Shown here one piece after another: positions 6,455 through 42,378 of a stretch of DNA of 64,000 nucleotides. This DNA is from Dehalococcoidia bacterium (lineage in GTDB: Bacteria; Chloroflexota; Dehalococcoidia; Lucifugimonadales; G963668185): NCBI GenBank assembly GCA_965261935.1, contig OZ253485.1:536388-600387 (forward strand). The letters run 5' to 3'. A model generated the notes under the pieces. It did no database searches, was not told the DNA's origin, and saw nothing but the letters and a program-made list of their open reading frames with translations. A program made the position numbers and the translations under genes. Numbering within the stretch: the first letter of the stretch is position 1; every line of letters starts with the position of its first letter.

Positions 6455-6456
6455 TC

Positions 6457-19601: not shown

Positions 19602-20206
19602 CCGTTGCGCATGACGGCTTTGTCTCCCGCCACCTCAATCGGAGATGTTCCCGGCCCATTGCCGAATTGCTGGCTTACACTCCGGTAACCCCTAACCAGG
19701 TTTCTCTGCTTAGTTTGTTCATCGCGCTGGGATCGCTTGCGCTATTCCTCAATGACCATCCTCTATGGGCAGGCGCAGCCGTTCATGCGTCTTCAATCGT
19801 TGACGGTGTAGACGGAGACCTGGCGCGCCGGAAACGCATGGCCACACGGTTCGGCGGCTTCTTGGACGCGCTTCTCGACCGATACTCCGATGTTGCCATC
19901 CTTGGAGGGCTGACGTACTGGTCCATTACCTTCGAAGGCCGACTGTCCTCCGAGTCTACGGTCATCATCGGCGTGTTGGCTATCGTAGGAGCGTTGATGA
20001 TCAGCTACAGTCGTGCGCGGGCGGAAGCCTCTCTGGGGTTCACTTTCCGTGGAGTAGCCGGGAACCTGGCATCCAGGGATGCGCGCCTGTTGATTGTGGT
20101 GATCGGGGCCGTCTCCGGGCAGGGGCTGGCATGTCTGGCACTCATCGCAGCCCTGTCAAACGGCGTGGTCCTCTGGCGGCTGGCTGTGGCCCGGAGCCAT
20201 TCCTGA
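19598..20206 (+). CDS. CDP-alcohol phosphatidyltransferase family membrane protein (DIPP-synthase-like)
   Basis: DGVDGDLARRKRMATRFGGFLDALLDRYSD matches D-G-x2-A-R-x8-G-x3-D-x3-D. Multiple TM helices. Proposed TTG start overlaps the upstream stop (TTGA); the track ORF starts at 19526. Confidence 0.8.
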   Translation: MTVAHDGFVSRHLNRRCSRPIAELLAYTPVTPNQVSLLSLFIALGSLALFLNDHPLWAGAAVHASSIVDGVDGDLARRKRMATRFGGFLDALLDRYSDVAILGGLTYWSITFEGRLSSESTVIIGVLAIVGALMISYSRARAEASLGFTFRGVAGNLASRDARLLIVVIGAVSGQGLACLALIAALSNGVVLWRLAVARSHS

Positions 20207-20285
20207 GGAATATGTACTCCAGAAAGACGCGCCATTCGACTTCGCCAAGCCTGTCGCTCCCCTGGACGACAGGTACTGTCCTGAG
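20115..20285 (+). repeat. Partner of the inverted repeat at 13313-13495
   Basis: Covers the last 30 codons of the phosphatidyltransferase gene plus about 80 nt downstream. Confidence 0.75.
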
Positions 20286-25386: not shown

Positions 25387-28300
25387 ATGAGATTGACGAG
25401 CGCGAGTCTTAGATCAGCGTTGGTCCCTATCGGCGTAACGCTGGTCATGGTGGCGCTTATGGGGTGCGATCGCGAAGCCGCGCCCACCGAGACTCCCGAA
25501 CCCATCGTTGCTGCCACTCCGGCGCCATCCCCTACGCGGACTCCGCAGCCCGCCGCCACCCCAACTCCTGAACCTGCGGTAACTGCAACGCCGTCACCCA
25601 TATCCACGCTGACTCCGCAGCCCACCCCTTCTGTAACCCCTGAACCCGCGGTGACTGCAACGCCGTCACTCTCCCCTACACCAACTTCTGAGCCCACGGT
25701 GGCTGCAACACCGTCACCCTCCCCTACACCAACTTCTGAGCCCACCGTCACTGCGACCCCCGCGCCTGCCGCTACGACCACGCCCGTAGTCGATCTCGAG
25801 GCAATCCTGAGCTTTGACCCCACAGTGGTGCGGGGTACTCTTTCCAACGGCCTGAGTTACTACATCAGGCACAACGAGGAGCCGCGCGATCGGGCGCAGC
25901 TAACGCTCGTGGTCAGGGCAGGCTCGATATTCGAAGAGGAGGAACAGCGTGGCCTGGCGCACTTCGTAGAGCACATGGCTTTCAACGGAACTGCCCGCTT
26001 CGCCAAGCAGGAGATCATAGATTACCTTGAGTCCATCGGCAGTTCCCTTGGTCCCGACTTAAATGCCCAAACCGGCTTCGATGACACAGTGTATTGGCTG
26101 GAAGTTCCAACCGACGATCCCCAGATTACCGAAACCGCATTTCAGATTCTTAGCGACTGGGCATACGCGGTGACATTCGACCCTGCCGAAGTGGATCTCG
26201 AGCGTGCTGTCGTCCTAGAAGAGTGGCGCCTATACCAGGGATTCAACTCCCGCTTTCAAGAAAACTGGTTTCCCGTGCTGTTTGGCTCCTCGCGGTACGC
26301 AACTCGGGACCCCATTGGACTGACAGAGGTCATTGAGACAGCTCCGGTGGAACGCCTTAGGGAGTACTACGAGCGTTGGTACAGACCTGACTTGATGGCC
26401 GTAGTTGCCGTGGGCGATTTCGATATTGAATTGATCGAGTCAAAAGTTAAGAAGCACTTTGCTCCGCCACCTGAAGGCGAAGCCACTCAGACGCGCGCCG
26501 CGATCGCGCCAGCCACCGACAGGCGGCGCTTCGACATTCCGGGCCACGACGAACCACTCATTGAGGTGTTCACTGATGCCGAGTCGCCTGGTACCCAGTT
26601 CATCCTGGTTCGAAAGCTCGATCCCGACACTGGTCAAGATCTGACGGCATTCCGCCGTGTGGTGGTGGAGCGGCTTGCAATCATGATGCTCAACGCGAGG
26701 CTGTCTGAACGAGGACAGACCGCCGATCCCCCATTCTTGTGGGCCGCCACCGGGCGTTCTCAGTTTGTGGAACCACTCGACCTTCTCACATTCTCAGCAT
26801 GGATGGAGCAGGGCGGTGTCGAACGCGGACTAGAAGCCGTGCTTGAGGAGATACAGCGCATACGACAGCATGGCTTTACTGGTGGCGAGTTGGCGCGGGA
26901 GAAGGCCAATTTGCTGAGCACGGTGGAGAACATGTACAGGCAACGCGACCAGTCGACCTCATCAGAACTGGTCAATTCGTACGTGGACCACTTCATCCGA
27001 GGCGCTCCGGTTCCCGGCATTGAGGCTGAGTGGGCCCTTTACCAGGAGCTGCTGCCGCAGGTCCAGTTGGCAGATTTTGACGACCTTGCTGAGTCATGGG
27101 CAAAGCTTGAAAACACTGCGCTATTGGTAGTGCGCCCCGCCGAAACCAACGCCAGCTCGGATGAAGAACTGGCGGCGGCGGCATTGTCGCAACTCGAGAC
27201 GGCCAACACACTGGAGGTGGCAGCCTACGCGGACGACCTTGGCGATACCCCGCTGTTGGCGACAATTCCGACTCCGGGAAGCATCACTGCGGAGGAGCCA
27301 ATCGATTCTATCGACGCCCAAAGTTGGACGCTCTCAAATGGAATCACCGTGATCGCCAAGCAGACCGGCTTCCGCAACGACGAGCTTGTATTCGAGGCAT
27401 TTAGTCCTGGCGGTCATTCGCTTGTCGCAGACGAGGACCACGTGTCAGCCTTGCACGCTGACAGCCTAGCTTCCGGCAGCGGCGTCGGTCCACACGACAA
27501 CGTAACCCTGGATAAACTGCTGGCCGGCAAGAGAGTTTCGGTGTCGCCATACATCGGAGAGTTGTTCGAAGGTTTCACGGGCAATTCCTCACCGGAAGAC
27601 TTGGAGACTCTATTTCAGTTGGTCACGCTTTACGCAACTGAGCCCAGGCTGGACCCGGTCTACTATTCAACCTACGAGTCAACTCTCCAGAGCGTCGCCG
27701 AGACTCGTGCCGCCCAGCCTGACGCGATCCTCTTCGACACAGCGAACACTGTGCTGGGCCAGGCTCACTTCCGCCAGCGTCCACTTACAATCGAGTTGCT
27801 GGAGGAACTGAGCCTGGAGCATGCAAAGGCGGTGTTTTCCGACCGGTTTGCAGACTTGGGCGATGCGACATTTGTGTTCGTTGGCGCATTCGACTGGGAA
27901 GACCTCCGAGCATTCTCAGCTACCTATTTGGCCAGCTTGCCGGTCACTGGTCGTACCGAGCAGTGGCGCGATGTCGGGATCGACCCGCCGACTATGGTGG
28001 AGGATCACATCGTGCGCAGCGGCATTGAACCGCGAAGCAGGACTGTGTTGGTGTTCGCCGGAGATTTGGATTGGAGCCGCAACGAAGCGCTGGCGCTCAC
28101 TGTGGCAGGCGAGATGCTTGGGATCCGCCTCCGGGAACGTGTGCGGGAGCAACTTGGCGGCACTTACAGCATCAGCGTAAACGCTGATGGTTCCACACCT
28201 CTGCCGGACCCCGAGTACCAAGCCTCCATCATATTCGGCAGTGATCCTTCACGCACCGAAGAACTCTTTAGGGAAGTGATGGCAGAAGTGAAGTGGCTTC

Positions 28301-28557
28301 GGGAAGGCGGAGAGCAGGATTATTTGGACACCGTTAAGGAACTTCTGCGAACGACGCGGCAAGAACAGCTGCGAGACAACGATTTCTGGCTGCGTCAGAT
28401 TCGGACCGCAATGCAGCGCGGTGAGTCACTCACGGAGATCCTCAGCTTCGATGAACGTTTGGAGGCCTTGACGCTGGAGCAGGTCGCAGCAGCGGCTCTG
28501 CGCTACCTCACTGACGACCGCTACGTGCGGATCGTGCTGCTCCCCGAAGAAGGATAA
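25387..28557 (+). CDS. M16 (pitrilysin/insulinase) family zinc metallopeptidase lipoprotein
   Basis: 1056 aa. Lipobox ALMGC, Pro/Thr-rich linker, HFVEHMAFNGT (HxxEH) zinc motif. Two M16 halves. Confidence 0.9.
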   Translation: MRLTSASLRSALVPIGVTLVMVALMGCDREAAPTETPEPIVAATPAPSPTRTPQPAATPTPEPAVTATPSPISTLTPQPTPSVTPEPAVTATPSLSPTPTSEPTVAATPSPSPTPTSEPTVTATPAPAATTTPVVDLEAILSFDPTVVRGTLSNGLSYYIRHNEEPRDRAQLTLVVRAGSIFEEEEQRGLAHFVEHMAFNGTARFAKQEIIDYLESIGSSLGPDLNAQTGFDDTVYWLEVPTDDPQITETAFQILSDWAYAVTFDPAEVDLERAVVLEEWRLYQGFNSRFQENWFPVLFGSSRYATRDPIGLTEVIETAPVERLREYYERWYRPDLMAVVAVGDFDIELIESKVKKHFAPPPEGEATQTRAAIAPATDRRRFDIPGHDEPLIEVFTDAESPGTQFILVRKLDPDTGQDLTAFRRVVVERLAIMMLNARLSERGQTADPPFLWAATGRSQFVEPLDLLTFSAWMEQGGVERGLEAVLEEIQRIRQHGFTGGELAREKANLLSTVENMYRQRDQSTSSELVNSYVDHFIRGAPVPGIEAEWALYQELLPQVQLADFDDLAESWAKLENTALLVVRPAETNASSDEELAAAALSQLETANTLEVAAYADDLGDTPLLATIPTPGSITAEEPIDSIDAQSWTLSNGITVIAKQTGFRNDELVFEAFSPGGHSLVADEDHVSALHADSLASGSGVGPHDNVTLDKLLAGKRVSVSPYIGELFEGFTGNSSPEDLETLFQLVTLYATEPRLDPVYYSTYESTLQSVAETRAAQPDAILFDTANTVLGQAHFRQRPLTIELLEELSLEHAKAVFSDRFADLGDATFVFVGAFDWEDLRAFSATYLASLPVTGRTEQWRDVGIDPPTMVEDHIVRSGIEPRSRTVLVFAGDLDWSRNEALALTVAGEMLGIRLRERVREQLGGTYSISVNADGSTPLPDPEYQASIIFGSDPSRTEELFREVMAEVKWLREGGEQDYLDTVKELLRTTRQEQLRDNDFWLRQIRTAMQRGESLTEILSFDERLEALTLEQVAAAALRYLTDDRYVRIVLLPEEG
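25657..25752 (+). repeat. 48-bp x2 tandem repeat in the Pro/Thr linker
   Basis: ATPSLSPTPTSEPTVA / ATPSPSPTPTSEPTVT; nucleotide units 25657-25704 and 25705-25752 differ at a few positions. Confidence 0.8.
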
Positions 28558-28753
28558 CACTCGCGCAAGACTCTCGAGTTGTGCGCGTCGGGCGTTACGG
28601 CAGCTTATCGCTTCCTTGCCAATGCTTGGGCTGTGTACTTCGCACCATCTTCGATTTCTTCGGCAATCGGACTGCTGTTGTCTGGCACGAGGTCATTTTC
28701 TCTGTCCCTCGGCGCACTTATGAAGGAGAAGCAATGGATTTGAGAAGTTGCCG

Positions 28754-30437
28754 CGCTCCGGGAGGGATATGTAGGAGTACGTGGTCGTGCAAGTGGTGGA
28801 GGAGGCGAGCGAAGCGGCCGACTTGATGTCCTCAACGGTCTACTTGCGGGGCACGGTTGGATGTATTGGTAGGTTGTGAGCAACTTTCGAGTTGCGTGTT
28901 GCTGTGCTGACGCCCTGAACTGTTGATAGAGCATTTTGCATGTTCGGCGTGAGTACAAATGTCCCCATGTGATTAAGTACCTTTCGGCCTCGACAACGCC
29001 GCGCCGAGTCGGTACGTTTAATGTGAGGGATGCAATGGATCCACGCCATCAAGTGAGAGGGGTCCATCGATATCATTGCCAATGGACGGTATCGGCGTAG
29101 AGGGTCCAATCCCCGTAGCGTCGTAACGAGGGCAGGGGTGGAGGGCTAGGTACCTGGCATGCTTGGGGCCGACATACGCAGACAGGTTGTCCAGGCGGTG
29201 CGAGCCGACCCGGACGCAATGGTGTACGCCGCGAGAGTCTCAGTGTGGATGCGCTGGCTCATCTGGCTGGCTGCAGTGGCTGTGACGGCCTTTCGACCGG
29301 AGTTCTGGTACGCCACCGGCAAGCAGCACCTGTTCCTGAACGTGCCTCTGGTGGTGTTCAACGGCCTTGTCCACTACCGTCTCTGGACTGGCCGGGCGGT
29401 GACGTGGCGTTGGCTAGTATTCCTCAGCGGACTGGACATCGCCCTGATCACTGCCGCCATCATCGGCGGCGAATTCGGCCTGTTCATCTATGTGGCCTAC
29501 TATCCCGCCCTGGCGCTGTTCGCCGTCGTCTTCGCGTCCCTGTGGCTCAGTCTCGCCTGGACCACGATGGTCGCTGCCATCTATGCCGTTGTCACTCTGA
29601 CGGCGGGCTCCGGCCTCGACTTCGAATCCGGTCAGGAGAAGGCTCTCCTAGCCAGGTTGGTGGCAATGTATGCGGTTGCCGCATCGGTCAGCCTGATCGC
29701 CCGGTTCGAGCAGGTCAGGAGACAGGAGTCCTCAGAACGGGAGAAGGAGTTGCATCGGGAGCGCGTTGAGCTTTCCCAGGCCATTCATGACACGGCCGCA
29801 CAGACCGCATACATGATCGGCTTGGGGATACACAGGGCCATGAAGCTGGCCGCCGGTCTGAGCGAGGATCTGACTGCCACACTGGCCGCGACCTCATCGC
29901 TGTCCAAGGTGGCTATGTGGGAGTTGAGGCGTCCCATCAACGAGGGTTACTTCTTCGAGGGTAGAGAGTTGGCCCGCGTGCTCTGGTCACACACAGAGAC
30001 ATTTGCGAAGGTCGCCGCGGTCCCTGCGGAGATGTCTCAGACCGGGACTGAGCCGCCGCTCGCAGTGGTCACCCGAACCCGCCTCTTCTCCATAGCCCAC
30101 AATGCACTCACCAATGCGTTTCTGCACGCCCGTGCCAGCAAGGTGGAGGTCAGGCTGGACTTCGAGGCCGACGGCATCCGACTGTCCGTCTCGGACGACG
30201 GGGTTGGCCTTCCCGACGACTACGCAGAACGCGGTAGAGGCTTCATAGGCATGAAGGCGGACGCTGAGCAACTCGGCGGCGCGCTCACCGTTGAAACAGA
30301 CGCTCGCCACGGAGGAACGACCGTGACCTGCAAGACGCCCTACAGATAAATCGTTGGCGGGAGGCCCAGATGTCTTCGACTGAAAGGATCAGAGTGATGC
30401 TGGTAGACGACCACCCCATCATGAGGAACGGTCTGCG
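28754..30437 (+). repeat. Left arm of the 1,684-bp inverted duplication
   Basis: Position x pairs with 61492-x. All ORF-track translations in the arm recur verbatim in the right arm. The boundary bases were checked by eye. Confidence 0.9.
29159..30349 (+). CDS. Sensor histidine kinase, HisKA_3 (NarL-partner) type, multi-TM sensor domain
   Basis: 396 aa. About six TM helices. H-box ELSQAIHDTAAQ, N-box HNALTNAFLHA, G1 DDGVGLP, G2 GFIGMKADAEQLGG. Confidence 0.9.
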   Translation: MLGADIRRQVVQAVRADPDAMVYAARVSVWMRWLIWLAAVAVTAFRPEFWYATGKQHLFLNVPLVVFNGLVHYRLWTGRAVTWRWLVFLSGLDIALITAAIIGGEFGLFIYVAYYPALALFAVVFASLWLSLAWTTMVAAIYAVVTLTAGSGLDFESGQEKALLARLVAMYAVAASVSLIARFEQVRRQESSEREKELHRERVELSQAIHDTAAQTAYMIGLGIHRAMKLAAGLSEDLTATLAATSSLSKVAMWELRRPINEGYFFEGRELARVLWSHTETFAKVAAVPAEMSQTGTEPPLAVVTRTRLFSIAHNALTNAFLHARASKVEVRLDFEADGIRLSVSDDGVGLPDDYAERGRGFIGMKADAEQLGGALTVETDARHGGTTVTCKTPYR

Positions 30438-31044
30438 ACACGCTCTGGAAAGTGAGGGGGACTTCGTGATCGTAGGTCAAGCCGGAGATGGAAGAGAGGC
30501 AGTGAGGGTAGCGGAGATCGTCGAGCCTGATGTGATTGTCATGGACGTGATGATGCCGCACAAAGACGGCGTCGAGGCTTGTCGGGAGATCATGGATCTG
30601 CTGCCGGACACTCGGGTGCTGATGCTAACGGCCTCGACCGAAGAGAATGTGGTCGTGGAGGCGGTCGCTGCCGGCGCGACGGGCTATTTGCAGAAGTACA
30701 CAGGGCCTGAGGAGTTGGCAGATGCTGTTCGGGACGTGGCTCAGGATCGTATGCGCATACCAGACAAGTCTCTTAGGCACGTCTTTGCGACAATCCGCGG
30801 CCAGCGCGGGCTCACTGCTGGCCGGACTATGGATGCGTTGACCCCTAGGGAAAGGGAGATCGTAAAGTTGTTTGCCGACGGCAAGTCATACGCTCAGATC
30901 GCCAAGGCCAGAGGTAACAGCACAGCGACCGTCAGAAACGCGATCTACCGAATTCAGGACAAATTGGGGATCAGTACGAAGCAGGAAATCGTGGTCTGGG
31001 CTGTGAGGAGCGGCCTGCTGGACGAGGTGGACTCGGGCGGCTGA
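30370..31044 (+). CDS. NarL/FixJ-family response regulator (REC + LuxR HTH)
   Basis: 224 aa. MLVDDHP, phospho-acceptor VIVMDVMMP, LTASTE. C-terminal LTPREREIVKLFADGKSYAQIA...TVRNAIYRIQDKLG. Confidence 0.9.
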   Translation: MSSTERIRVMLVDDHPIMRNGLRHALESEGDFVIVGQAGDGREAVRVAEIVEPDVIVMDVMMPHKDGVEACREIMDLLPDTRVLMLTASTEENVVVEAVAAGATGYLQKYTGPEELADAVRDVAQDRMRIPDKSLRHVFATIRGQRGLTAGRTMDALTPREREIVKLFADGKSYAQIAKARGNSTATVRNAIYRIQDKLGISTKQEIVVWAVRSGLLDEVDSGG

Positions 31045-31054
31045 AGCCCAACAA

Positions 31055-31122
31055 CGCAGACCGTTCCTCATGATGGGGTGGTCGTCTACCAGCATCACTC
31101 TGATCCTTTCAGTCGAAGACAT
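31055..31122 (-). pseudogene. Duplicated 5' stub (23 codons) of the response-regulator gene
   Basis: MSSTERIRVMLVDDHPIMRNGLR is identical to the intact gene. Track ORF 30886..31122 then reads antisense through the regulator's 3' end. Confidence 0.8.
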
Positions 31123-31142
31123 CTGGGCCTCCCGCCAACGAT

Positions 31143-32333
31143 TTATCTGTAGGGCGTCTTGCAGGTCACGGTCGTTCCTCCGTGGCGAGCGTCTGTTTCA
31201 ACGGTGAGCGCGCCGCCGAGTTGCTCAGCGTCCGCCTTCATGCCTATGAAGCCTCTACCGCGTTCTGCGTAGTCGTCGGGAAGGCCAACCCCGTCGTCCG
31301 AGACGGACAGTCGGATGCCGTCGGCCTCGAAGTCCAGCCTGACCTCCACCTTGCTGGCACGGGCGTGCAGAAACGCATTGGTGAGTGCATTGTGGGCTAT
31401 GGAGAAGAGGCGGGTTCGGGTGACCACTGCGAGCGGCGGCTCAGTCCCGGTCTGAGACATCTCCGCAGGGACCGCGGCGACCTTCGCAAATGTCTCTGTG
31501 TGTGACCAGAGCACGCGGGCCAACTCTCTACCCTCGAAGAAGTAACCCTCGTTGATGGGACGCCTCAACTCCCACATAGCCACCTTGGACAGCGATGAGG
31601 TCGCGGCCAGTGTGGCAGTCAGATCCTCGCTCAGACCGGCGGCCAGCTTCATGGCCCTGTGTATCCCCAAGCCGATCATGTATGCGGTCTGTGCGGCCGT
31701 GTCATGAATGGCCTGGGAAAGCTCAACGCGCTCCCGATGCAACTCCTTCTCCCGTTCTGAGGACTCCTGTCTCCTGACCTGCTCGAACCGGGCGATCAGG
31801 CTGACCGATGCGGCAACCGCATACATTGCCACCAACCTGGCTAGGAGAGCCTTCTCCTGACCGGATTCGAAGTCGAGGCCGGAGCCCGCCGTCAGAGTGA
31901 CAACGGCATAGATGGCAGCGACCATCGTGGTCCAGGCGAGACTGAGCCACAGGGACGCGAAGACGACGGCGAACAGCGCCAGGGCGGGATAGTAGGCCAC
32001 ATAGATGAACAGGCCGAATTCGCCGCCGATGATGGCGGCAGTGATCAGGGCGATGTCCAGTCCGCTGAGGAATACTAGCCAACGCCACGTCACCGCCCGG
32101 CCAGTCCAGAGACGGTAGTGGACAAGGCCGTTGAACACCACCAGAGGCACGTTCAGGAACAGGTGCTGCTTGCCGGTGGCGTACCAGAACTCCGGTCGAA
32201 AGGCCGTCACAGCCACTGCAGCCAGCCAGATGAGCCAGCGCATCCACACTGAGACTCTCGCGGCGTACACCATTGCGTCCGGGTCGGCTCGCACCGCCTG
32301 GACAACCTGTCTGCGTATGTCGGCCCCAAGCAT
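31143..32333 (-). CDS. Second, identical copy of the HisKA_3 histidine kinase
   Basis: 396/396 aa identical to 29159..30349. Confidence 0.85.
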   Translation of the reverse strand: MLGADIRRQVVQAVRADPDAMVYAARVSVWMRWLIWLAAVAVTAFRPEFWYATGKQHLFLNVPLVVFNGLVHYRLWTGRAVTWRWLVFLSGLDIALITAAIIGGEFGLFIYVAYYPALALFAVVFASLWLSLAWTTMVAAIYAVVTLTAGSGLDFESGQEKALLARLVAMYAVAASVSLIARFEQVRRQESSEREKELHRERVELSQAIHDTAAQTAYMIGLGIHRAMKLAAGLSEDLTATLAATSSLSKVAMWELRRPINEGYFFEGRELARVLWSHTETFAKVAAVPAEMSQTGTEPPLAVVTRTRLFSIAHNALTNAFLHARASKVEVRLDFEADGIRLSVSDDGVGLPDDYAERGRGFIGMKADAEQLGGALTVETDARHGGTTVTCKTPYR

Positions 32334-32905
32334 GCCAGGTACCTAGCCCTCCACCCCTGCCCTCGTTACGACGCTACGGGGATTGGACCCTCTACGCCGA
32401 TACCGTCCATTGGCAATGATATCGATGGACCCCTCTCACTTGATGGCGTGGATCCATTGCATCCCTCACATTAAACGTACCGACTCGGCGCGGCGTTGTC
32501 GAGGCCGAAAGGTACTTAATCACATGGGGACATTTGTACTCACGCCGAACATGCAAAATGCTCTATCAACAGTTCAGGGCGTCAGCACAGCAACACGCAA
32601 CTCGAAAGTTGCTCACAACCTACCAATACATCCAACCGTGCCCCGCAAGTAGACCGTTGAGGACATCAAGTCGGCCGCTTCGCTCGCCTCCTCCACCACT
32701 TGCACGACCACGTACTCCTACATATCCCTCCCGGAGCGTTCCCATTACTCAGATGGACAAATCGACTGCTTCTGCAATTTCAATGTGGGACGCATATGAT
32801 GCCATGCTCCCAAACAGACAAGGATGACCTTGCAGTGTAGAGTACCAATTGGAATACTTGGCGATGCCGTCACACCAGTGTTTGGCTTCACCCAACGTAC
32901 CTACC

Positions 32906-34048
32906 CTACGACCTCGCAACACTGAGCAGTTCGCGGAATAGTGCTTCCCAGCGATCCAGCACCGCGGTGTCGGAGAACTCGGTGCGAACGCGTTCAAACG
33001 CCCGGTCCGCCAAGGCCTGCCGTTCCTCGGGACTCGCATCCATAAGTTTCTCCATTGCGTTCGCGAGTGCCTCCGAATTTCCCGGCGGTGCGAGGAGACC
33101 GGACACTCCATCCTCCAGTATCTCGGGTATGGACGCGACGGATGTCGCGACCACGGGTCTACGCGAGGCCATCGCCTCCAACACGACCACTGGCATGCCC
33201 TCCCAAGCTGAAGAAAGCACCAGTGCATCACTTGCCTGTAGCAGCCGTGGCACATCACGCCGCAGTCCCAGCATAGCGACGCGCTCCTCCAGCCCAAGGC
33301 GCCGCACAAGCGACTGCACTTCGCTCCGTAAGGGGCCGTCTCCCGCGATGGCCAGGTACGATTCCGGGCGCTTGCAGGACAACTCCGAGAATGCATTCAG
33401 CATCGTCGGGTAACCTTTTTGGACAGCCAAGCGCCCCGCGGCCAGCCACAGGAACTGATCGCGAGATATGCCCAACTCTCCTCGCGTTTCTTCACGGCTC
33501 CCGTCCGGCGCGAACCTGTCGATGTCAACGAAGTTGGGGATGACCCGGACTCGGGACGCCGTGGTGACTCCCCGCCGGCAAAGCTCGTCAGCGAGACTAC
33601 TCGACAACACCGTCACGGCGTCAGCCATGCCGTCTGTAAGCCCCAGCAGCCTTTCTCTGACTGGGGAGTCACGCTCGTTATGAATCGAAGACACGCGCGC
33701 CCGGACTCCAACCAGAAGGCGTGGAAGCCGAGCCGTTATCATGCCGTGGTACATGAACCCTACGAGAACATCGGGCCGTTGCCGCCTGATCACAGATGCG
33801 GCCGAGATCAGGCTAGCGAATCTCCGTGCCCCGTCGGAGGCGTTCAGCGTCAACACGGTCACGTCCTGCTCTCGAAGCTCGCGGCGCAGCGAGTCCTTAG
33901 AGAACGGCAGATATGAGAGGACTGTCACCCGCCACCCCCTCCCTGCGAGGCCATTAGCAATGGCCACCAGTTGGTTCTCCGCGCCGCCCCGCTCAAGGCC
34001 GCTGATCACAAACATCACATGCGCGGAAACTGGCGGAGCTTTCCTCAA
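32906..34048 (-). CDS. Glycosyltransferase family 4
   Basis: GGAENQ N-terminal motif. SSAWEGMPVVVLEAMASRRPVVATSVASIPEIL (E-x7-E). Confidence 0.85.
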   Translation of the reverse strand: MRKAPPVSAHVMFVISGLERGGAENQLVAIANGLAGRGWRVTVLSYLPFSKDSLRRELREQDVTVLTLNASDGARRFASLISAASVIRRQRPDVLVGFMYHGMITARLPRLLVGVRARVSSIHNERDSPVRERLLGLTDGMADAVTVLSSSLADELCRRGVTTASRVRVIPNFVDIDRFAPDGSREETRGELGISRDQFLWLAAGRLAVQKGYPTMLNAFSELSCKRPESYLAIAGDGPLRSEVQSLVRRLGLEERVAMLGLRRDVPRLLQASDALVLSSAWEGMPVVVLEAMASRRPVVATSVASIPEILEDGVSGLLAPPGNSEALANAMEKLMDASPEERQALADRAFERVRTEFSDTAVLDRWEALFRELLSVARS

Positions 34049-34069
34049 ACGCTCACTGCACGTCCCTGG

Positions 34070-35398
34070 TCACAGCGTAAAGACTCTACCGGCTACAGCC
34101 CCTGCCTTCCGTAAGGCGTTGCGTGTGTCGACGAATAGGTGGCCGGCGGCCGCGACCGTCTGCCAATCGTACGAGCTGTGGTCCGTGACGATAACAGCGC
34201 AATCGGCCTTTTGCAGCGCGTCTTCCAGAGTAAGTTGTCCCTCGGTTGCAACGCTTCGTAAGTCCATTCCTTCATAGTGGATGGCGGGAACTAACGGGTC
34301 GTGGTAAGCGACAATCGCCCCCTTCCCGGCCAGAAGACGGACTATCTCCAAGGCAGGCGATTCCCTTGTGTCGTTGACATCTGGTTTGTAGGCGATTCCC
34401 AATATCAGTACGCTCGATCCTCTCAGGGCCTTCGATTCTTCGTTTAGCGCATCGGCAATCTTGCCGACCACGTGCTGAGGCATCGAGAAGTTGATGTCCT
34501 CAGCTAGCTGTATGAAGCGGGCCGTGTAGTCCAACGTCCGCAGTTTCCACGCAAGGTATTGTGGGTCTACGGGAATGCAGTGGCCGCCCAGCCCGGGCCC
34601 AGGGTAGAACGCCATGAATCCGAACGGCTTGGTTCCCGCGGCTTCGATGACCTCCCATACGTCCAGTCCCAAGCGATCGCAGATCAAGGCCATCTCGTTG
34701 GCTAGGGCGATGTTTGTTGCCCGGAAAGTATTCTCCAGCAGCTTGGCCATCTCGGCCGCCTTGGGGGATGAGACGCAGTGAACACGGTCAACTATCGATT
34801 CATAGAGCGCAGACGCCGCTTCGGTGCAAGCGGGGGTGAGACCGCCAATTAGCTTCGGCGTGTTCGATATTGTCCAGGCGCTCTGGCCCGGATCAACGCG
34901 TTCGGGCGAGAACGCCAGGTAGAAGTCGCGTCCGGGCTCCAGCCTGGTATTGCAGTTGGCCTGTAGCAAGGGAAGCAAGAACTCTTCCGTGCAGCCGGGA
35001 TACATCGTGCTCTCCATTACTACAAGCGTGCCTTCGCGCAGATGCGGCGAGATCCGCTCGACTGCGTCCGCCACGTGCGAGACATCCGGGGAACGCGTCT
35101 TGCCGAGAGGCGTTGGCACGCAAACGATAATCGCGTCTGATAGCGCAACGGCTTCATAGTCTTCTGCCGCGGTAACTCTGCCCTCTTGCAGGACCAACCT
35201 CTCTATTGTCGAGTCTGCTACGTCACTGATGTAGGACTGCCCCGCGTTTATCGCCCGCACCCGCTCTTTGTCGATGTCTATTCCGTGGACAGTAAATCCC
35301 GCATCGGCAAAGAGTATTGCCAGCGGCAAGCCGACGTACCCGAGCCCCACGATGGAGATGACGGCTTCGCGGCTGGAAATCCGACTCTGAACGTTCAT
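34070..35398 (-). CDS. Nucleotide-sugar dehydrogenase (WecC/TviB-like, UDP-glucose/GDP-mannose dehydrogenase family)
   Basis: Track ORF trimmed to MNVQSRIS... VGLGYVGLPLAILFADAG Rossmann motif. Catalytic-region GGHCIPVDP. Confidence 0.85.
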   Translation of the reverse strand: MNVQSRISSREAVISIVGLGYVGLPLAILFADAGFTVHGIDIDKERVRAINAGQSYISDVADSTIERLVLQEGRVTAAEDYEAVALSDAIIVCVPTPLGKTRSPDVSHVADAVERISPHLREGTLVVMESTMYPGCTEEFLLPLLQANCNTRLEPGRDFYLAFSPERVDPGQSAWTISNTPKLIGGLTPACTEAASALYESIVDRVHCVSSPKAAEMAKLLENTFRATNIALANEMALICDRLGLDVWEVIEAAGTKPFGFMAFYPGPGLGGHCIPVDPQYLAWKLRTLDYTARFIQLAEDINFSMPQHVVGKIADALNEESKALRGSSVLILGIAYKPDVNDTRESPALEIVRLLAGKGAIVAYHDPLVPAIHYEGMDLRSVATEGQLTLEDALQKADCAVIVTDHSSYDWQTVAAAGHLFVDTRNALRKAGAVAGRVFTL

Positions 35399-35810
35399 GC
35401 AGGTGATTGTAAAGACTGTCGAACCATCGAAACTACCGTCGAACCCCAATCATGACCTCGTCTCTATACGGTAAGAGCAATTCTGAACGTATCTCGCTGA
35501 GGCTAGTCTGCATTTGATCAAAGCCCCGTTGGCGATCGTTTGCCTCAAGTTGATTCATTTCGTTTCATTTCCTGGCTGGAACTGCCTGGAACACGAGGCG
35601 GCCTAGAAGCGTTCGTGGAACCTGAACGGAACAGATCAAGGCACCCTTGAGACAACAGTGAAGCAGGACTTGCGGCCATGCTGACCGCCTTCCTAGCCGC
35701 CACAGACAGTGATGCCGAAGCTGAGTTAAAGGCCATTCACACACACAACAACAATAGTACATAAGTGCGCACACGGCAATGGGCGGATAGGTCAAATGCT
35801 GACGCGAGGT

Positions 35811-37388
35811 TCATTCCCTAGCGGCAGGGTCATTGGAGGTTGCTTCCCGTTCTGCCGTCAGCCGCTCTATGCAAAACACCAGCCCGACGAACACGAAGTG
35901 GAACCAGTCTCCTACGAATGGGCCGGCGTTGTGGAACAGACTGTTGATGCCATACCCTGCGAGCGAGCCCGTAACTGCGCCGGCGAGTACCAAGCCTTCA
36001 GTGTCACGTGAGCGGAGAATGCGCCGATACGTTACAAGAAGCGACCGGCCTGCTAGCAGGTAGAACGCAACGAGCAGCGCCAGCCCTGGGTACCCATAGT
36101 ATACGAGCACTACTAGGAACTGGTTGTGCGGAGTTGTCCTGAGGACCTCCTCGGCAACTCGAGGCTCAAGTCCTCCCGGAAGATGGTGGTCCTCCGGCAG
36201 GTACCTGCCGGTTCCCAGCGGGTGATCCAGCGAGTATCGCAGCGCCGTCAGAGCCATAGGTATCCTGGCCCGGGCTGACGTGTCATCGAGGCTGATGATT
36301 CGCCTGTTGAGACCAAAGTCGGCGCGCGACTCTCGCCAGAGCTCACGTGCGGTCTCTATCTTGTTACGCAACTCAACTTCGTAGGGTGAGTTCTGGTCAG
36401 ACGGCCAACCAGGCTGAGACAGGCGAACTAGCGCTCTCCCGTACCACTTGTCCTCTAATCCGCCGGTTTCGTTTCCAATGCTTGGCGTTGGCCCGCTCGC
36501 GAGTATGGTATCGGCGCCCCTCACTCCCGGAACGAACATCAGCAGCAGCCAGACGACGATCGCAGCCAAAGCGGCTGACATACGCCTCCGGAGTTCCGGC
36601 CTGCCAACGAGTACGATGACGCCCGTTACAACACAGCCTACAACCACGCCCAAGATTGCCGAGCGTGTGGCGTTCAGTAACACCACCGTCAACATCAGCA
36701 CGAGCGCGAAAAAAAGCACGGCCCGCCATGACCATGTGCGTGCTTTGGTGCGTAGCCGGCTGCCCGACACAAGAAACGCGAAAGCGAGAGGTACGGCCGC
36801 TGCAAGGACGTAGCTGAACGCGATGATGTTCTGGGACAGGCCGGCCATCCTGCCGCCGGCAACTATGCCGGGGATCCTATCCAGGTCGACTCTGCTGAGG
36901 ATAACCCAGACCGTCATAAACGGGTCGCCCAACAAGGTCACAGCCACACCATACAGCGCACAGATCGCGGCCCCTAGCACCAAGACCCCCAGCAGTAGCT
37001 TCAACCTGAAGGGTCTGTCGACTGAGAACCAGACAACGACGATCAAGCCTATACCCATGGCAAAGTGTCCGAGCCGCAGTAGTGCGAGCGTGTCCGTGAA
37101 CAGGTACACCGCTGCCGCCCATAACGTAAGCAACGCCGAAACTGTGAGAATCGGCACCACTGGCCTGAGCCGGGCATAGAGGAAGGAAACGGATCGGGCG
37201 TTTACGCAGCCTGTTGCATAGCAGGCACCGGCCAGCAACACCGCGACACTGAGGGACAGGATGAAGACTTTCGCATTGCCGAACGGTGGATATACTGCAA
37301 CAGTCCATATGCGGCCCAGCATCCCAATGACCAAGAGGACAATTATCGTCCTCTTGAGGAGTTGCTCGTACTTGATGGTCAGGCGCAC
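35811..37388 (-). CDS. O-antigen polymerase/ligase-like (Wzy_C) polytopic membrane protein
   Basis: 10 or more TM helices. TTPHNQFLVVLVYYGYPGLALL resembles the O-antigen ligase motif. Start uncertain (GTG 37388 or ATG 37322; the track ORF starts at 37484 inside the upstream gene). Confidence 0.7.
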   Translation of the reverse strand: MRLTIKYEQLLKRTIIVLLVIGMLGRIWTVAVYPPFGNAKVFILSLSVAVLLAGACYATGCVNARSVSFLYARLRPVVPILTVSALLTLWAAAVYLFTDTLALLRLGHFAMGIGLIVVVWFSVDRPFRLKLLLGVLVLGAAICALYGVAVTLLGDPFMTVWVILSRVDLDRIPGIVAGGRMAGLSQNIIAFSYVLAAAVPLAFAFLVSGSRLRTKARTWSWRAVLFFALVLMLTVVLLNATRSAILGVVVGCVVTGVIVLVGRPELRRRMSAALAAIVVWLLLMFVPGVRGADTILASGPTPSIGNETGGLEDKWYGRALVRLSQPGWPSDQNSPYEVELRNKIETARELWRESRADFGLNRRIISLDDTSARARIPMALTALRYSLDHPLGTGRYLPEDHHLPGGLEPRVAEEVLRTTPHNQFLVVLVYYGYPGLALLVAFYLLAGRSLLVTYRRILRSRDTEGLVLAGAVTGSLAGYGINSLFHNAGPFVGDWFHFVFVGLVFCIERLTAEREATSNDPAARE

Positions 37389-38107
37389 TTGATAGTGAAG
37401 TACCTTTCGGCCACCGGGGAGCGCACGATCCGCTCCGGCTTGCCTTCGAAGAATTCGTCGATCGCCTTTGTGGCTCCGGGCCACGCCTCTAGACGGTACT
37501 CATCGAATGCTATTGCGCCTCTGGGTGCGACGTGATCGTACAAGAGCTCTAGCGCTGCCCTGTAGGACTGGTAGATGTCCACGTCAAGGTGCAAAAGAGC
37601 AATCGGCCCTGCGTCGTAGGACGGCAGCGTTGTCCGCAGTTCCCCTTCAACAAAGACGATGTCGGAAATAGAATCCGCGTCCAGTCCGGCGGCCAGCAGG
37701 TTCTCGCGTACCTGCTCCTGTGAATAGTTCCAAGTTCCGCCAAGATCAGCATTCCATTTGCCGTCAACAGCCGTAGCGTCAGGTATTCCTCGGAACGTGT
37801 CGTACCCGAGTATGCGACGTGGCCTGTCGATTGCGTTCGAAATCACGGAGAAATCAAAGAGGGACCTACCTGAACCGACGCCGCACTCAACAATCACTCC
37901 ATCCACATCGGCCACTTTTGCCAACAGCCTTTCGAAGTGCATGAACCGGCTAATCCATTTGAAACCGTATCCGCTTACTAGCGGATTTTCAGGATTGCGT
38001 CTCGCGCGACTCACGTCAAGTCCAAACGCACTTCTAGCAAACTTCTTGGCAGCACTCTTAAATGCCGCTTTCAGGCCTCTACTCTCGTCGGATGAAGGCA
38101 CTCTCAC
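37379..38107 (-). CDS. TylF/MycF-like SAM-dependent O-methyltransferase
   Basis: VIVECGVGSGRS...GYDTFRGIP...LLHLDVDIYQSYRAALELLY...GAIAFDEY matches the macrocin-O-methyltransferase pattern. The GTG start overlaps the upstream stop (GTGA), with AAGGAGG adjacent. Confidence 0.75.
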   Translation of the reverse strand: MRVPSSDESRGLKAAFKSAAKKFARSAFGLDVSRARRNPENPLVSGYGFKWISRFMHFERLLAKVADVDGVIVECGVGSGRSLFDFSVISNAIDRPRRILGYDTFRGIPDATAVDGKWNADLGGTWNYSQEQVRENLLAAGLDADSISDIVFVEGELRTTLPSYDAGPIALLHLDVDIYQSYRAALELLYDHVAPRGAIAFDEYRLEAWPGATKAIDEFFEGKPERIVRSPVAERYFTIKCA

Positions 38108-39225
38108 CTCCTTGTTGAAGTATCCACCAGTTCGAATACTAGGTCGAAGTACTGCTGGATCGAGCCTTCGGCAGTGTACTCGCTGGTTCCTTCGATGAGG
38201 CGTGTGGATTCGATGGGCCTGTCGATCGTATCGAGTATCGACTGACCCAGTGCGCGCCAGTCTCCCACCGGGACCAGGCGGCCCAGTGCTCCGTCTCGCA
38301 GAATTTCGCGCGGACCGCTTGGACAGTCGGTGCTTACGATCAGTGTCCCGCACGCCATCGCTTGAACAAGCACATTCGGCGACCCTTCGTATACAGAGGA
38401 CAGCACAAACAGCTTTGCCCTGGACATGTACGAGTATGGGTTACTCACGAAGCCCGGGAAGTCAACCGCATCTTCTATTCCTAGGTCCTCAGTAAGGAGC
38501 CGCAACGCATCTCGTTCCGGCCCTTCTCCCAGGACGACCAGCCTTGCTAGGCGGACCTTCAGCACCACGTTGGCGAATGCCTCCAGCAGTGTGGGATAGT
38601 CCTTCACAGGCACCAACCGGCCCGCGGCGAGTACTACCGGCAGGGATGAGTCCTGGAACCAGGGGTGGTCGACAGGTTCCACCGCCTTCTCGGCCAGTTC
38701 GGGCCAGACGACGGGATTATGGATTACTCGCACCTGTGGCGCGAGATTCGGGGCGGCGCCGACGAGATCGTCTGCCGCACCACGCGAGTTTGCGATTACC
38801 ACGTCGGCATACCGCAGAAGCAGGCGCTCAAGCCGCAGGACGGCGCGCGCCTTAAGTCCTCCCTGCCTGAGCTCCATCGTAAATGTGCTCGCGCGGCGGA
38901 CGCCGAGTGCCATCTTCCTGGAAAAGAGTGCACGCGCCAGAATTGCGACTACGTTAATCTCAGGCGAAGTAGATATGAGCACGGATGGACGCTCGCGACG
39001 GAGGTAGCGAACAAGCGCGGGGAAGCACAATAGGGCCCTCCGCGAATTGAGGTCTATGAGCCTCACATCCGGTGGGACGAATTCGAGGTAGGGCCCCGTA
39101 GCCTTGACCAGAATGAGATCGACAGCCACCCCCCGCTGCGCTAGTCCCCTCGCAATGTCGAGCATTGCTCGTTCGGCGCCACCACCTCGAAGCGAGCTAA
39201 CAAAGAGTGCGACGCGAATGCTCAC
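38104..39225 (-). CDS. Glycosyltransferase family 4
   Basis: SLRGGGAERAM N-terminus. SSVYEGSPNVLVQAMACGTLIVSTDCPSGPREIL. GTGA overlap with the upstream gene. Confidence 0.85.
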   Translation of the reverse strand: MSIRVALFVSSLRGGGAERAMLDIARGLAQRGVAVDLILVKATGPYLEFVPPDVRLIDLNSRRALLCFPALVRYLRRERPSVLISTSPEINVVAILARALFSRKMALGVRRASTFTMELRQGGLKARAVLRLERLLLRYADVVIANSRGAADDLVGAAPNLAPQVRVIHNPVVWPELAEKAVEPVDHPWFQDSSLPVVLAAGRLVPVKDYPTLLEAFANVVLKVRLARLVVLGEGPERDALRLLTEDLGIEDAVDFPGFVSNPYSYMSRAKLFVLSSVYEGSPNVLVQAMACGTLIVSTDCPSGPREILRDGALGRLVPVGDWRALGQSILDTIDRPIESTRLIEGTSEYTAEGSIQQYFDLVFELVDTSTRR

Positions 39226-40343
39226 CGTGAGCCGCCCGCCATCTCGACAAGCACGTCAACGTAGCGGTCGGGTGAATGTTCGGAGAGGACCAGCTCGTAG
39301 CTGCGACGTCCCATCTCGAGAAGCTGCTCGCGGTCCTTAATTGCTCTCTCGGTGCATGCCGTCAAGTCGTCGATGTCGCCGGATCGGAACATGAAACCGT
39401 TTTCGCCGTGCCGAATGTAGCCGCTCGTCCCGTTCGCATCGCTGCACACGACCGGCAGCGAGTGGGCCATCGCTTCGAGGTGCGAGACGGCGGCCGGCTC
39501 GTCCCGGCTCGCTAGCACAAACAGGTCGTGACTTGCGTAGAACTCACCCATTTCTAGATGGGGTACGTTGGCCTCGATCCGAACAACCTCTTCCATACCA
39601 AGACACGTTCTGAGCCGCGTCAGCTCTTCCCACTCGCGACTATGCTCAGATGTCGAGCACTCGCCGACGATCGTTGCTCTGAGCGCATAAGACTTCGATA
39701 ACTTCGCTACGACCTCAAGGAACATTCGATGGTTCTTTCGCGGCATGAACTTGCCCACGTGAAGCAAATTTATGTACCCATTTGCGAACCAGTCCCTCTC
39801 GTCCGCCGATGTCTGCGGCAACATTACAAACGGCACGTATCGAGGTGAACACCGGGGCCACGCATGGCGGTTGGGGTCCCCTAGTACTGGCGTGAACCAC
39901 GCAGCGCCCGTCACGCGGAGCAAGGTCGTTTCCATTGCACCCTTTAATCGGCGGACTTCCCGATGCCGTGGCGCCTGATTATAAAGAACAAGGTGTGCAT
40001 CCATAATCCTGGAAAGCGTGATCGCCAGCAACCCGTAGGCGGAAGAAGGGTTCCGGACGACAACGGCAGCTGGCTTCACGCTTCGCATCTCTCTCCAGAA
40101 CGTCAAGACTGGGGGGATGCCGCCAACGTCGCTCCAGGTCAGTCCAGGCAATGCCGAGACCATACGCCGGAGAAGGTCGAAAATGCGAGAGCGGCCTAGG
40201 ACACGCGGCTCAAGTACATCGTATGCCTCGCTCCGGCCCCGTCTGAGCGCCAGGACCGTCACCTCGTGGCCCGCGTCCAGTAGAGCCCTGAACGCGTACC
40301 GCTGGTTCGTGTGAAACCTCGGAGCCGTGAACACAAAGCGCAT
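39222..40343 (-). CDS. Glycosyltransferase family 4/1
   Basis: ASRDEPAAVSHLEAMAHSLPVVCSDANGTSGYI (E-x7-E region). Confidence 0.8.
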   Translation of the reverse strand: MRFVFTAPRFHTNQRYAFRALLDAGHEVTVLALRRGRSEAYDVLEPRVLGRSRIFDLLRRMVSALPGLTWSDVGGIPPVLTFWREMRSVKPAAVVVRNPSSAYGLLAITLSRIMDAHLVLYNQAPRHREVRRLKGAMETTLLRVTGAAWFTPVLGDPNRHAWPRCSPRYVPFVMLPQTSADERDWFANGYINLLHVGKFMPRKNHRMFLEVVAKLSKSYALRATIVGECSTSEHSREWEELTRLRTCLGMEEVVRIEANVPHLEMGEFYASHDLFVLASRDEPAAVSHLEAMAHSLPVVCSDANGTSGYIRHGENGFMFRSGDIDDLTACTERAIKDREQLLEMGRRSYELVLSEHSPDRYVDVLVEMAGGSR

Positions 40344-40348
40344 TCGGC

Positions 40349-41239
40349 TTACTCGAAAGGTACCGTCGCAGACCTCGTCAATACCGCCAAAGCGTAATCA
40401 TCGCCCTGGTACTCGCCTCGTGAAGGCATGGTCACGATCTCCAGAGACCAGCGGCCTTCACGCTCCTCCAGGAAGTCCGAGACCGCTCTTCTGATGCCCG
40501 CGAAGCGTTGCTTGAGAACCACAAACTCGTTGGCTTCCCCCAGGCGGGGAGCCGCGTCTCTAGCCTTTTGCCACACCACGCCCAGCGTCCGCCCGACTCC
40601 CCAAGCAGCGAAGTTCATTGGCCTAGATCTGATACGCCCAGCGACTACGCCGAGGTGGTAGTCATCCATGACGATGGCGCACCGTTCCGCCATCAGCGAG
40701 TCGAGCATCGTCAACTCACCCTTCACGTCCGCATAGGTGTGGCTGCCATCGAGAAACGCCAGGTCTATTGGGCCATGCGGCCACTCCTGTAAGACTTCCA
40801 GTGAACGGCTCGTAATGGTGGAGACTACTGCACTCTCCTCCGCGAACCACCTTTCCCAGATCTCCAATCGAGTCATGGGCCGTGCACCATCCAACTCGTC
40901 ATCGCGCTGCTTCGCGATGTGCCAGCGGCGAGGCTCATCGTGACCGAACACGTCGACTGTATAGACATGGCCGCCCGCGTCCTCGTCCAGAATCGCACGC
41001 GCAAGCATCATGGCGGAAAAGCCCCTAGCCGTACCGATGTCGAGCGCTACCAGCGAACCGCCGCTCCCGGCGAATAACCGGCCCAGCTTGTAAAGCAAGA
41101 GACCGTGTTCTCCGCCATCTCCGCCTCTGAGAACCCTTCGGGCGCTGCGGTACCATCCGTGAGGAACTTCCGCCCTGGCCAATTGTGCAAGCTTCACATC
41201 TAGAGACGTGACGGAGGCTCCGGAAGGGACTAAAGTCAC
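40349..41239 (-). CDS. Class I SAM-dependent methyltransferase (O-methyltransferase family 3 / CmcI-like)
   Basis: LVALDIGTARGFSAMMLA...VYTVDV...LAFLDGSHTYADV...IVMDDY. Proposed GTG start overlaps the upstream stop (GTGA 41236-41239). Confidence 0.65.
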   Translation of the reverse strand: MTLVPSGASVTSLDVKLAQLARAEVPHGWYRSARRVLRGGDGGEHGLLLYKLGRLFAGSGGSLVALDIGTARGFSAMMLARAILDEDAGGHVYTVDVFGHDEPRRWHIAKQRDDELDGARPMTRLEIWERWFAEESAVVSTITSRSLEVLQEWPHGPIDLAFLDGSHTYADVKGELTMLDSLMAERCAIVMDDYHLGVVAGRIRSRPMNFAAWGVGRTLGVVWQKARDAAPRLGEANEFVVLKQRFAGIRRAVSDFLEEREGRWSLEIVTMPSRGEYQGDDYALAVLTRSATVPFE

Positions 41240-42378
41240 AATGACAGACGATATCCCGAATCCAACATCAGCGGCCGGTAGACTTCTTCGTGATAGCGTC
41301 TTGCTATGGCACTCCAATCGTGCTGACGAACCGTACCCAAGGCATTCTCGACTATTGACTTTGTAAGTTCGGCATCTTGTAGAAGCTTTGACGCGCCGGC
41401 TGTCAGGCCATCTACGTCATCTACATCCGCAAGCAGCCCATTCTCCCCATTTCTTATCAGATCGGTGCACATTCCTACTCTCGTAGCAACCAGCGGAGTT
41501 TCGGTCGCCATGGATTCAAGACATGCCATAGGGCCACCCTCATCTCGTGAAGCAATCACATACAGATCGAGCGCCCAGTAGTGCCGAGCTACGTCTTCAT
41601 ATCGCTTCAGGAATACGTGACGGTAATGAACACCCATCTTCTCCAAGCCAAGCTTCACATATCCTCTCGCTGGTCCTGTCAGGAGGACATAGATATTGAA
41701 ATCACGACGCAGCCGGTCGATTACCTTCAGGAACACGTCAGGGCCCTTGACCCACTTGGGAGACAGGCCTTCTTCCCAGCCTTCTCCGTCCTTTTGAAAC
41801 GATCCGATGCACTTTGCATCTTCTGGAATACCGAGTTTTCTCCGGATATCGAGGCGCTCCTCGCTGGTAGGCGGAAGGAACAAGCGCGTATCGATTCCGT
41901 GAGGGATGTATGCAAGCTTGGCTCTGTCCACCCCCTCTTCCAGCAGAGTAGTTGAGCCAGCTTGAGCATGCACGATTATCTTGTCTAAGAAGTTACTCGC
42001 TTCACAGACGTTATCTAGCCGCCTGGCAAACTGTGGATTCGGGTGCGATCTCCTCCCGTGTGTCCAAGAAACGACCTGCTTGTTGGAAGGATGAACTCTG
42101 CGGTACATCTCTTCTTCAAAGTAACCTGTTGGCGACCCAAAATGGACAAGAGACTGACGCAGATCACTCCATGCGTATTGAGGTCCAAAGGCATAGTAGT
42201 TGCTGAGGTGATAACGTATGGCGTTTCCGATTGTTGAAAGAACCCAGCCGGTATCTCCAACGTAGATCAGCGGAGGTTTGACCCAAGAGCATCTCTTAGC
42301 AATCGCGGACGTGCATATGTACCATCCGCGCAGCGTCAAATGGCCGGGCTTGGCTATCTTCTTGCCTATTCTTCTCAC
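41236..42378 (-). CDS. Glycosyltransferase family 4/1
   Basis: ASRDEGGPMACLESMATETPLVATRVGMCTDLI. GTGA overlap with the upstream gene. Confidence 0.8.
   Translation of the reverse strand: MRRIGKKIAKPGHLTLRGWYICTSAIAKRCSWVKPPLIYVGDTGWVLSTIGNAIRYHLSNYYAFGPQYAWSDLRQSLVHFGSPTGYFEEEMYRRVHPSNKQVVSWTHGRRSHPNPQFARRLDNVCEASNFLDKIIVHAQAGSTTLLEEGVDRAKLAYIPHGIDTRLFLPPTSEERLDIRRKLGIPEDAKCIGSFQKDGEGWEEGLSPKWVKGPDVFLKVIDRLRRDFNIYVLLTGPARGYVKLGLEKMGVHYRHVFLKRYEDVARHYWALDLYVIASRDEGGPMACLESMATETPLVATRVGMCTDLIRNGENGLLADVDDVDGLTAGASKLLQDAELTKSIVENALGTVRQHDWSAIARRYHEEVYRPLMLDSGYRLSL

Follow-up and report, generated by a model that had tools for sequence, protein, structure and literature searches.

A 64,000-nt stretch of the genome of a sponge-type Dehalococcoidia bacterium (contig OZ253485.1, positions 536,388 to 600,387; referred to here as the window) carries the gene of a sensor histidine kinase twice, in mirror image, around the only complete gene of its response regulator. 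The locus raises the question of whether such an inverted duplication is real and, if so, what keeps its two arms alike and whether the segment between them, the core, changes its orientation. In the current study the structure was found again in related assemblies, with arms that evolve in concert and a core that occurs in both orientations. The probable explanation is a species-specific inverted duplication that is converted and flipped by homologous recombination, and that is likely a near-neutral polymorphism and not a programmed switch.

Within the window, the left arm is the exact reverse complement of the right arm over 1,684 nt, with no mismatches, position x pairing with position 61492-x in a base-by-base check (coordinates are given in table 1). 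The window is free of N. Each arm consists of a leader of about 405 nt, the entire kinase gene and 23 codons of the regulator gene. The core (617 nt) starts 68 nt into the regulator gene, and holds codons 24-224, the TGA stop codon and a further 10 nt. The pairing, the arm limits, the size of the core and the content of the arms, including the start of the right arm 10 nt after the stop codon, had been described in a first-pass annotation of this DNA, and the description was exact at every position. G+C content does not differ between arm, core and flanks (58.5–60.5%). A repeat finder gave arms of 1,700 nt (28738-30437 and 31055-32754), because its ungapped extension tolerates 16 extra nt. Between these outer segments, which lie outside the exact repeat (28738-28753 and 32739-32754), 9 of 16 nt pair (ATtTGAGaAgTtGccg versus ATcTGAGtAaTgGgaa), which may be accidental or reflect a once longer, now decayed duplication. 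Inspection of the outer and inner boundaries revealed no convincing microhomology at the novel junctions. A chance origin of a perfect inverted match of 1.7 kb is ruled out, and the 64-kb window contains no other repeat of its kind, the other long repeats being copies of an ISNCY-family transposase.

The kinase matched the Pfam families PF07730 (HisKA_3; 24.8 bits, cut-off 24) and PF02518 (HATPase_c; 45.6 bits), and the regulator matched PF00072 (Response_reg; 98.9 bits) and PF00196 (GerE; 42.5 bits). No NCBIfam equivalog at cut-off was found for the kinase, while the top NCBIfam match of the regulator was NarL, at 158 bits under a cut-off of 250. The domain composition of the predicted proteins assigns the pair to the two-component systems of the NarL/FixJ type. 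Both open reading frames (ORFs) were found where the first-pass annotation had placed them, with the domains it had described. Its reading that two kinase operons converge on one regulator gene, the right-hand one running antisense through the regulator, likewise agrees with the sequence.

The same order of genes (M16 peptidase, kinase, regulator, inverted kinase, glycan cluster) was found by exact-protein look-ups on five more contigs (39 kb to 1.05 Mb long) of two other metagenome assemblies in ENA, as the first-pass annotation had suggested might be sought in related genomes. Three of these contigs belong to assembly ERZ25074053 (ctg470889_20x_l, 1.05 Mb; ctg455266_8x_l, 61 kb; ctg439390_12x_l, 39 kb) and two to ERZ28763718 (ctg97786, 246 kb; ctg32459, 274 kb). 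The outer junctions (...gccg/CGCTCC and ...ggaa/CGCTCC) are common to all five, and the inner junctions are kept in four, the exception being ctg97786 with its garbled core. Left and right arms differ within each of the five contigs at 2–7 of the 1,684 sites (99.6–99.9% identity), indicating that the arms were assembled as separate loci. Compared with the arms of the window, 2–8 sites differ; hence none of the five is the window's own contig. In two further samples the junction of left flank and arm is present on short contigs that end inside the arm (L007, 1,708 bp, and L106). The possibility that L007 is a collapsed-repeat contig of arm length was rejected, as it consists of 103 nt of left flank followed by arm positions 1-1605.

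The related genomes are Dehalococcoidia metagenome-assembled genomes (MAGs) of PacBio HiFi/metaMDBG sponge metagenome projects. Contig names of the form ctgN_Nx_l would fit this pipeline, in which case single reads should span the 4-kb structure. A scan of JGI metagenomes with the regulator protein as query gave no contig of the same species, the top match being 70%. Taken as assembled, the sequences indicate that the duplication is genuine, and assembly error was rejected.

Nineteen variable sites were found among the 12 arms of the six genomes. Six alleles private to one genome sit in both of its arms (194G and 223A in the window; 93A, 347A and 1161C in ctg32459; 1350C in ctg455266), and eight alleles are private to one single arm. 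None of the 19 sites separates left arms from right arms. The mean number of differences between genomes was 6.1 for left-left, 5.5 for right-right and 5.7 for left-right comparisons (5.8 overall), and the mean difference between the two arms of one genome was lower (3.5). The lack of a left or right identity is a signature of gene conversion and indicates that the arms exchange sequence, i.e. evolve in concert. The zero divergence in the window is the extreme of the distribution of arm differences within genomes. The first-pass annotation had offered three options for it: a very recent event, ongoing gene conversion, or a fold-back chimera of assembly or amplification. Gene conversion acting on a fairly recent duplication is favored here, and the chimera is rejected by the recurrent junctions and the non-identical arms. 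Seven of the ten variant kinase codons were synonymous, suggesting that purifying selection acts on both kinase copies, or on one copy from which the other is converted.

The orientation of the core was scored with all contigs turned so that the peptidase gene is on the left. Three cores are forward (window, ctg470889 and ctg455266), their regulator being continuous with the left arm, and three are reversed (ctg439390, ctg32459 and ctg97786), with the regulator continuous with the glycan-side arm. Both orientations therefore occur on related long contigs, as had been predicted from recombination between the arms. Orientation was independent of flank similarity: two of the contigs with a window-like glycan flank are forward and one is reversed, and the remaining three are also split.

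The core of ctg97786 consists of the reversed sequence with seven small insertions, and the neighboring arms are without insertions. Its opening 15 nt are those of the forward core start, and the insertions at the left edge and at three examined internal places match forward-orientation sequence at about the same offset (e.g. TTGAC, CAAGGCC, AGGTCA). The simplest reading is that reads of both orientations were polished into a single consensus here, which would mean a mixture in one sample; a genuine decay of the regulator gene is less likely. The right flank of ctg97786 differs from that of ctg439390 at 2 of 7,595 sites. As the core is clean in five of the six contigs, orientation appears to be mostly fixed per strain, which suggests that flipping is slow compared with strain turnover and fast compared with a sequence divergence of 0.2–0.4%.

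A scan of one genome per GTDB species yielded 80 related kinase loci (55–78% identity), all of them from Dehalococcoidia or Chloroflexota MAGs. A plain operon of kinase followed by regulator on the same strand was present at 77 loci, and at the other three the regulator was upstream, displaced or on the opposite strand. No inverted kinase copy was found at any of the 80 loci, indicating that the duplication is species-specific and suggesting a recent origin; nor was an M16 or glycan gene found near the kinase at any of them. An ancestral single-copy outgroup was not found, since the nearest orthologs of the kinase (at most 78%) and of the M16 peptidase (74–80%) lie in unrelated neighborhoods. 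The locus with the regulator on the opposite strand after the kinase (L082) was considered as a relic of the structure and was rejected, because its regulator belongs to a different minus-strand operon, without a second kinase copy.

In the proposed mechanism, a recent inverted segmental duplication would have left two mirror-image copies of the 1,684-bp unit, one on each side of the remainder of the regulator gene. The long, near-identical arms would then serve as a substrate for general (RecA-type) homologous recombination. Non-reciprocal exchange, i.e. gene conversion, would keep the arms alike, and reciprocal exchange would invert the 617-bp core. Two isomers would result, with the regulator body on the peptidase-side arm or on the glycan-side arm; in both the junction would be in frame and each arm would offer the same complete upstream region, so that two equivalent isomers are expected. 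Since two near-identical inverted copies of 1.7 kb are ample substrate, we infer that one process explains both conversion and inversion. This process would presumably depend on RecA, and the flip itself would be neutral.

Several points weigh against this interpretation. The sole guide to the age and origin of the duplication is its absence from species with kinases of at most 78% identity. The orientation calls were made on assemblies, not on reads, and hold if the assembler resolved the 1.7-kb inverted repeat correctly. An assembly graph allows both core orientations as walks unless reads span a whole arm, and a HiFi origin of these samples is suggested by contig names and related records. 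Neutrality is argued from symmetry, and the scan located neither promoters nor terminators.

The possible effect of the flip on the cell has to be considered in this light. Either isomer has one complete kinase-regulator operon, and one kinase gene whose 23 trailing regulator codons lead antisense into the regulator body. It is probable that each arm has a promoter of its own and that the two are identical. Since the full conserved leader is part of each arm, the proteins expressed should be the same in both states. This agrees with the earlier claim that a flip switches the flank that carries the complete operon without altering any protein, as the arms carry the whole upstream region and the regulator is rebuilt either way. 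Any functional consequence of the flip is thus conjecture. The flanking M16 peptidase gene and the 13-kb glycan cluster both point inward, however, and a scan for intrinsic terminators found none between flanking gene and arm on either side, nor any downstream of the regulator; the two states could thus become unequal by read-through.

On this basis the flip might act as a phase switch that is independent of a recombinase, deciding which operon's read-through carries the complete regulator and which flank receives antisense transcription. The regulator, and perhaps the expression of surface glycans, would thereby be tied to one flank or the other. Such a switch would suit the position of the locus beside a glycan cluster that is hypervariable between strains, clusters of this kind being classic targets of phase variation. 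The structure and both intact kinase copies are kept in all six strains, and frameshifts affect the glycan genes close to the repeat in two of the three forward contigs and in none of the three reversed ones. Nevertheless, this explanation is unlikely. The conserved upstream region is present as a whole in each arm, probably providing the same promoter in both states; no protein is altered; and the five clean cores of six suggest an orientation that is largely strain-fixed, without rapid switching. The association between orientation and glycan gene integrity (n = 6) is not significant, and the structure is limited to one species. Response regulators and sensor kinases are, moreover, depleted among predicted programmed inversions (PMC9881135). 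The more specific version, a recombinase-free bistable switch that places the regulator at the tail of the peptidase or the glycan operon and redirects antisense transcription into the opposite flank, giving heritable surface-glycan states in a sponge symbiont by means of a gene duplication and the general recombination machinery alone, is distinctly doubtful.

It is quite improbable that the duplication is real but static, and that the differences in orientation are arbitrary choices of the assembler in an inverted repeat. A bidirected assembly graph would contain edges from the arm to both orientations of the core even with a single isomer, and assembled contigs are the whole of the orientation evidence. 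On the other hand, long accurate reads, at several kb, reach across a 1.7-kb arm, and long-read assemblers of the iterative-k type exploit them. The core of ctg97786 interleaves forward bases with reversed sequence, which requires reads of both kinds, and the distribution of alleles over left and right arms in the different strains is mixed, showing that the arms do exchange.

A site-specific inverton, in which a tyrosine or serine invertase encoded elsewhere acts on short sites within the arms, is very improbable. The first-pass annotation had stated that no site-specific recombinase is nearby. Accordingly, no tyrosine or serine recombinase domain was detected in the scanned ORFs of the 64-kb window (nearly all of those of at least 180 aa and some shorter ones, two of at least 180 aa that overlap stronger calls being left out), or among the called genes within 10 kb on the five related contigs. 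The nearest genes of mobile elements, three copies of an ISNCY-family transposase, are 11 kb or more from the locus. Trans-acting invertases exist in other bacteria, and the scan covers the 64-kb window, but the repeats here are 1.7 kb of duplicated genes instead of short recognition sites. Homologous recombination needs no more than long identical repeats, and concerted evolution over the whole arm points to general recombination. Nor was the change of promoter direction or coding sequence that characterizes a programmed inversion found, as the 224-aa regulator, together with the leader and kinase in front of it, is the same in both orientations. Least credible is a fold-back chimera of assembly or amplification, which would fit the zero divergence in the window but would be expected to have identical arms and to appear in one assembly only, whereas both sides have unique, syntenic flanks, five contigs of two other assemblies repeat the outer junctions with non-identical arms, and two further samples contain the left-flank/arm junction.

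Flipping by homologous recombination over a duplicated segment is known from other systems. The large inverted repeat of plastids is ancient and about 25 kb long, and its isomers are roughly equimolar within a cell. The locus described here is similar in its long near-identical inverted copies, gene conversion, both orientations, lack of an invertase and unchanged products, but has arms of 1.7 kb, is confined to one bacterial species, has a repeat boundary inside a gene and an orientation that seems mostly fixed per strain. In the sap locus of Campylobacter fetus, recA-dependent inversion occurs between oppositely oriented homologs of surface layer genes, and the inverting segment carries the single promoter and changes the protein that is made. 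Inversion over long homology and duplicated 5' regions are common to both, and here too the flip would depend on general recombination rather than on an invertase. Unlike in sap, the arms hold the 5' ends and presumably the promoters, the core is the shared 3' body, and the product stays constant. In enterobacteria, tufA and tufB are complete gene copies in inverted orientation, hundreds of kb apart, that undergo RecA-dependent gene conversion. They too evolve in concert and can mediate inversion of the segment between them; here, in contrast, 617 bp separate the copies, and the repeat ends inside the neighboring gene.

Gene-altering programmed inversions, such as the hsdS shufflons of type I restriction systems, create new alleles by swapping different 3' modules; they usually have a recombinase next to them and repeats that measure tens to hundreds of bp (Milman et al., NAR 2023, PMC9881135). 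The shared features are inverted repeats within coding sequence, a complete gene near a truncated inverted partner and an orientation that varies within the species. The present locus differs in having a single 3' module, no change of allele, no recombinase found and repeats of 1.7 kb. Invertons and intragenic invertons rely on short repeats and on invertases dedicated to them, and their flipping turns a promoter round or changes a coding sequence (bioRxiv 10.1101/2023.03.11.532203). As in those systems, a segment between inverted repeats occurs in both orientations in natural populations and can be detected with long reads, but neither short repeats, a dedicated invertase nor a change of promoter or coding sequence was found here. 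The literature search gave no direct precedent for a regulator gene shared by two inverted kinase copies.

The locus thus provides a natural example, in uncultivated Chloroflexota, of an inverted duplication that by itself creates an invertible segment and concerted evolution, with no dedicated enzyme. For annotators it is a warning that perfect inverted repeats on the kb scale in long-read metagenome assemblies can be genuine, and that the orientation of the enclosed segment is a variable of the population. If orientation did affect expression of the regulator or of the glycan cluster, this would be phase variation that arises without an invertase.

Table 1. Coordinates of the features at the duplicated kinase locus (positions of the window).
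Feature	Position	Strand	Basis or remark
Left arm (leader, kinase, first 68 nt of regulator gene)	28754-30437	+	Exact reverse complement of 31055-32738; boundaries recur in five related contigs
Right arm	31055-32738	-	Exact mirror of left arm
Invertible core, 617 nt	30438-31054	+	Forward in the window, in frame with left arm
Predicted sensor histidine kinase, left copy, 396 aa, HisKA_3 + HATPase_c	29159-30349	+	ORF and Pfam
Predicted sensor histidine kinase, right copy, identical in the window	31143-32333	-	ORF and arm identity
Only complete predicted NarL/FixJ-type response regulator, 224 aa, Response_reg + GerE	30370-31044	+	ORF and Pfam; spans junction of left arm and core
Orphan regulator start, 23 codons, then antisense of core	30886-31122	-	Direct sequence reading; arm ends 68 nt into gene
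Conserved leader of kinase operon	28880-29158 (mirror 32334-32612)	+ (mirror -)	Wholly within arms
M16 peptidase gene	25387-28557	+	Conserved left flank; reads toward left arm
Glycan-synthesis cluster (glycosyltransferases, UDP-glucose dehydrogenase, Wzy-like protein, methyltransferases, flippase)	32906-46211	-	Reads toward right arm

The conserved part of the leader (about 290 nt) showed a mean column identity of about 82% over 15 species whose kinases are 74–78% identical (loci L012-L045, at about 9720-10000). It had no Rfam match, and the covariation term of RNAalifold was close to zero; a structured RNA was therefore considered unsupported. The leader looks like a conserved regulatory region at the DNA level or an unstructured leader. 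In one species (L014, about 9960-9985, alignment columns 238-275), the 22-nt loop between CCCCCGC and GCGGGGG is the exact reverse complement of that in the other 14 species, a tiny hairpin-loop inversion within the conserved leader.

A second, direct copy of the leader lies 3–7 kb upstream of the kinase at several of the related loci (L013, L019, L022, L023, L072, L076 and L078), for example at 6166-6530 versus 9618-9985 in L013 and at 6494-6826 versus 9623-9976 in L023. At these two loci the leader copies lie on either side of the same pair of minus-strand genes (385 and 449 aa), and the upstream copy in L076 also carries an N-terminal fragment of the kinase. The 5' region of this family of kinase operons seems to be prone to duplication.

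Between strains, the left flank is 99.65–99.85% identical, while the right flank shows 92–98% identity and a differing content of glycosyltransferase and methyltransferase genes. The left flank, arms and core (99.5–99.9% identical) stand against a hypervariable segment at 32739-46211, and the right arm is the edge of a strain-variable island. A glycosyltransferase gene and the gene of the Wzy-like protein are split by frameshifts in ctg470889 (L004) and ctg455266 (L006), both of which have a forward core, and ctg470889 has a split UDP-glucose dehydrogenase gene as well. Intact versions of these genes adjoin the right arm in the window and in the three reversed contigs. With six contigs, the association of frameshifts with the forward orientation is not significant, and the frameshifts could stem from errors of the consensus, the region being strain-variable. 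Scans of 28.0–33.5 kb for promoters, terminators and Rfam families found nothing, and folding of the unique gaps and junctions gave no significant structure.

Elsewhere in the window, three elements of about 1.6 kb with an ISNCY-family transposase (386 bits, cut-off 250; 71–93% mutual identity) lie at 6433-8096 (+), 10484-12147 (-) and 16035-17523 (-). The first two form an inverted pair around the gene of a collagen-repeat/trypsin-like protease (8602-9906). An inverted repeat of 144 nt (91% identical; 13345-13488 versus 20123-20266) encloses 6.6 kb with genes for a periplasmic binding protein, the third ISNCY copy, an NTP-transferase and a CDP-alcohol phosphatidyltransferase.

An 880-aa SMC/Rad50-like ATPase is encoded beside a 376-aa Metallophos protein with a sub-threshold match to SbcD (53613-57382, -), and the gene pair resembles a nuclease of the SbcCD/Mre11-Rad50 type. 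In other bacteria, nucleases of the SbcCD type attack long palindromes with short spacers, and the 617-bp spacer may be the reason that the inverted duplication is tolerated. At 850-4830 (-), a ResIII/Helicase_C protein (788 aa) adjoins a DUF6094/N6-methylase-like protein (400 aa), forming a restriction- or defense-like pair.

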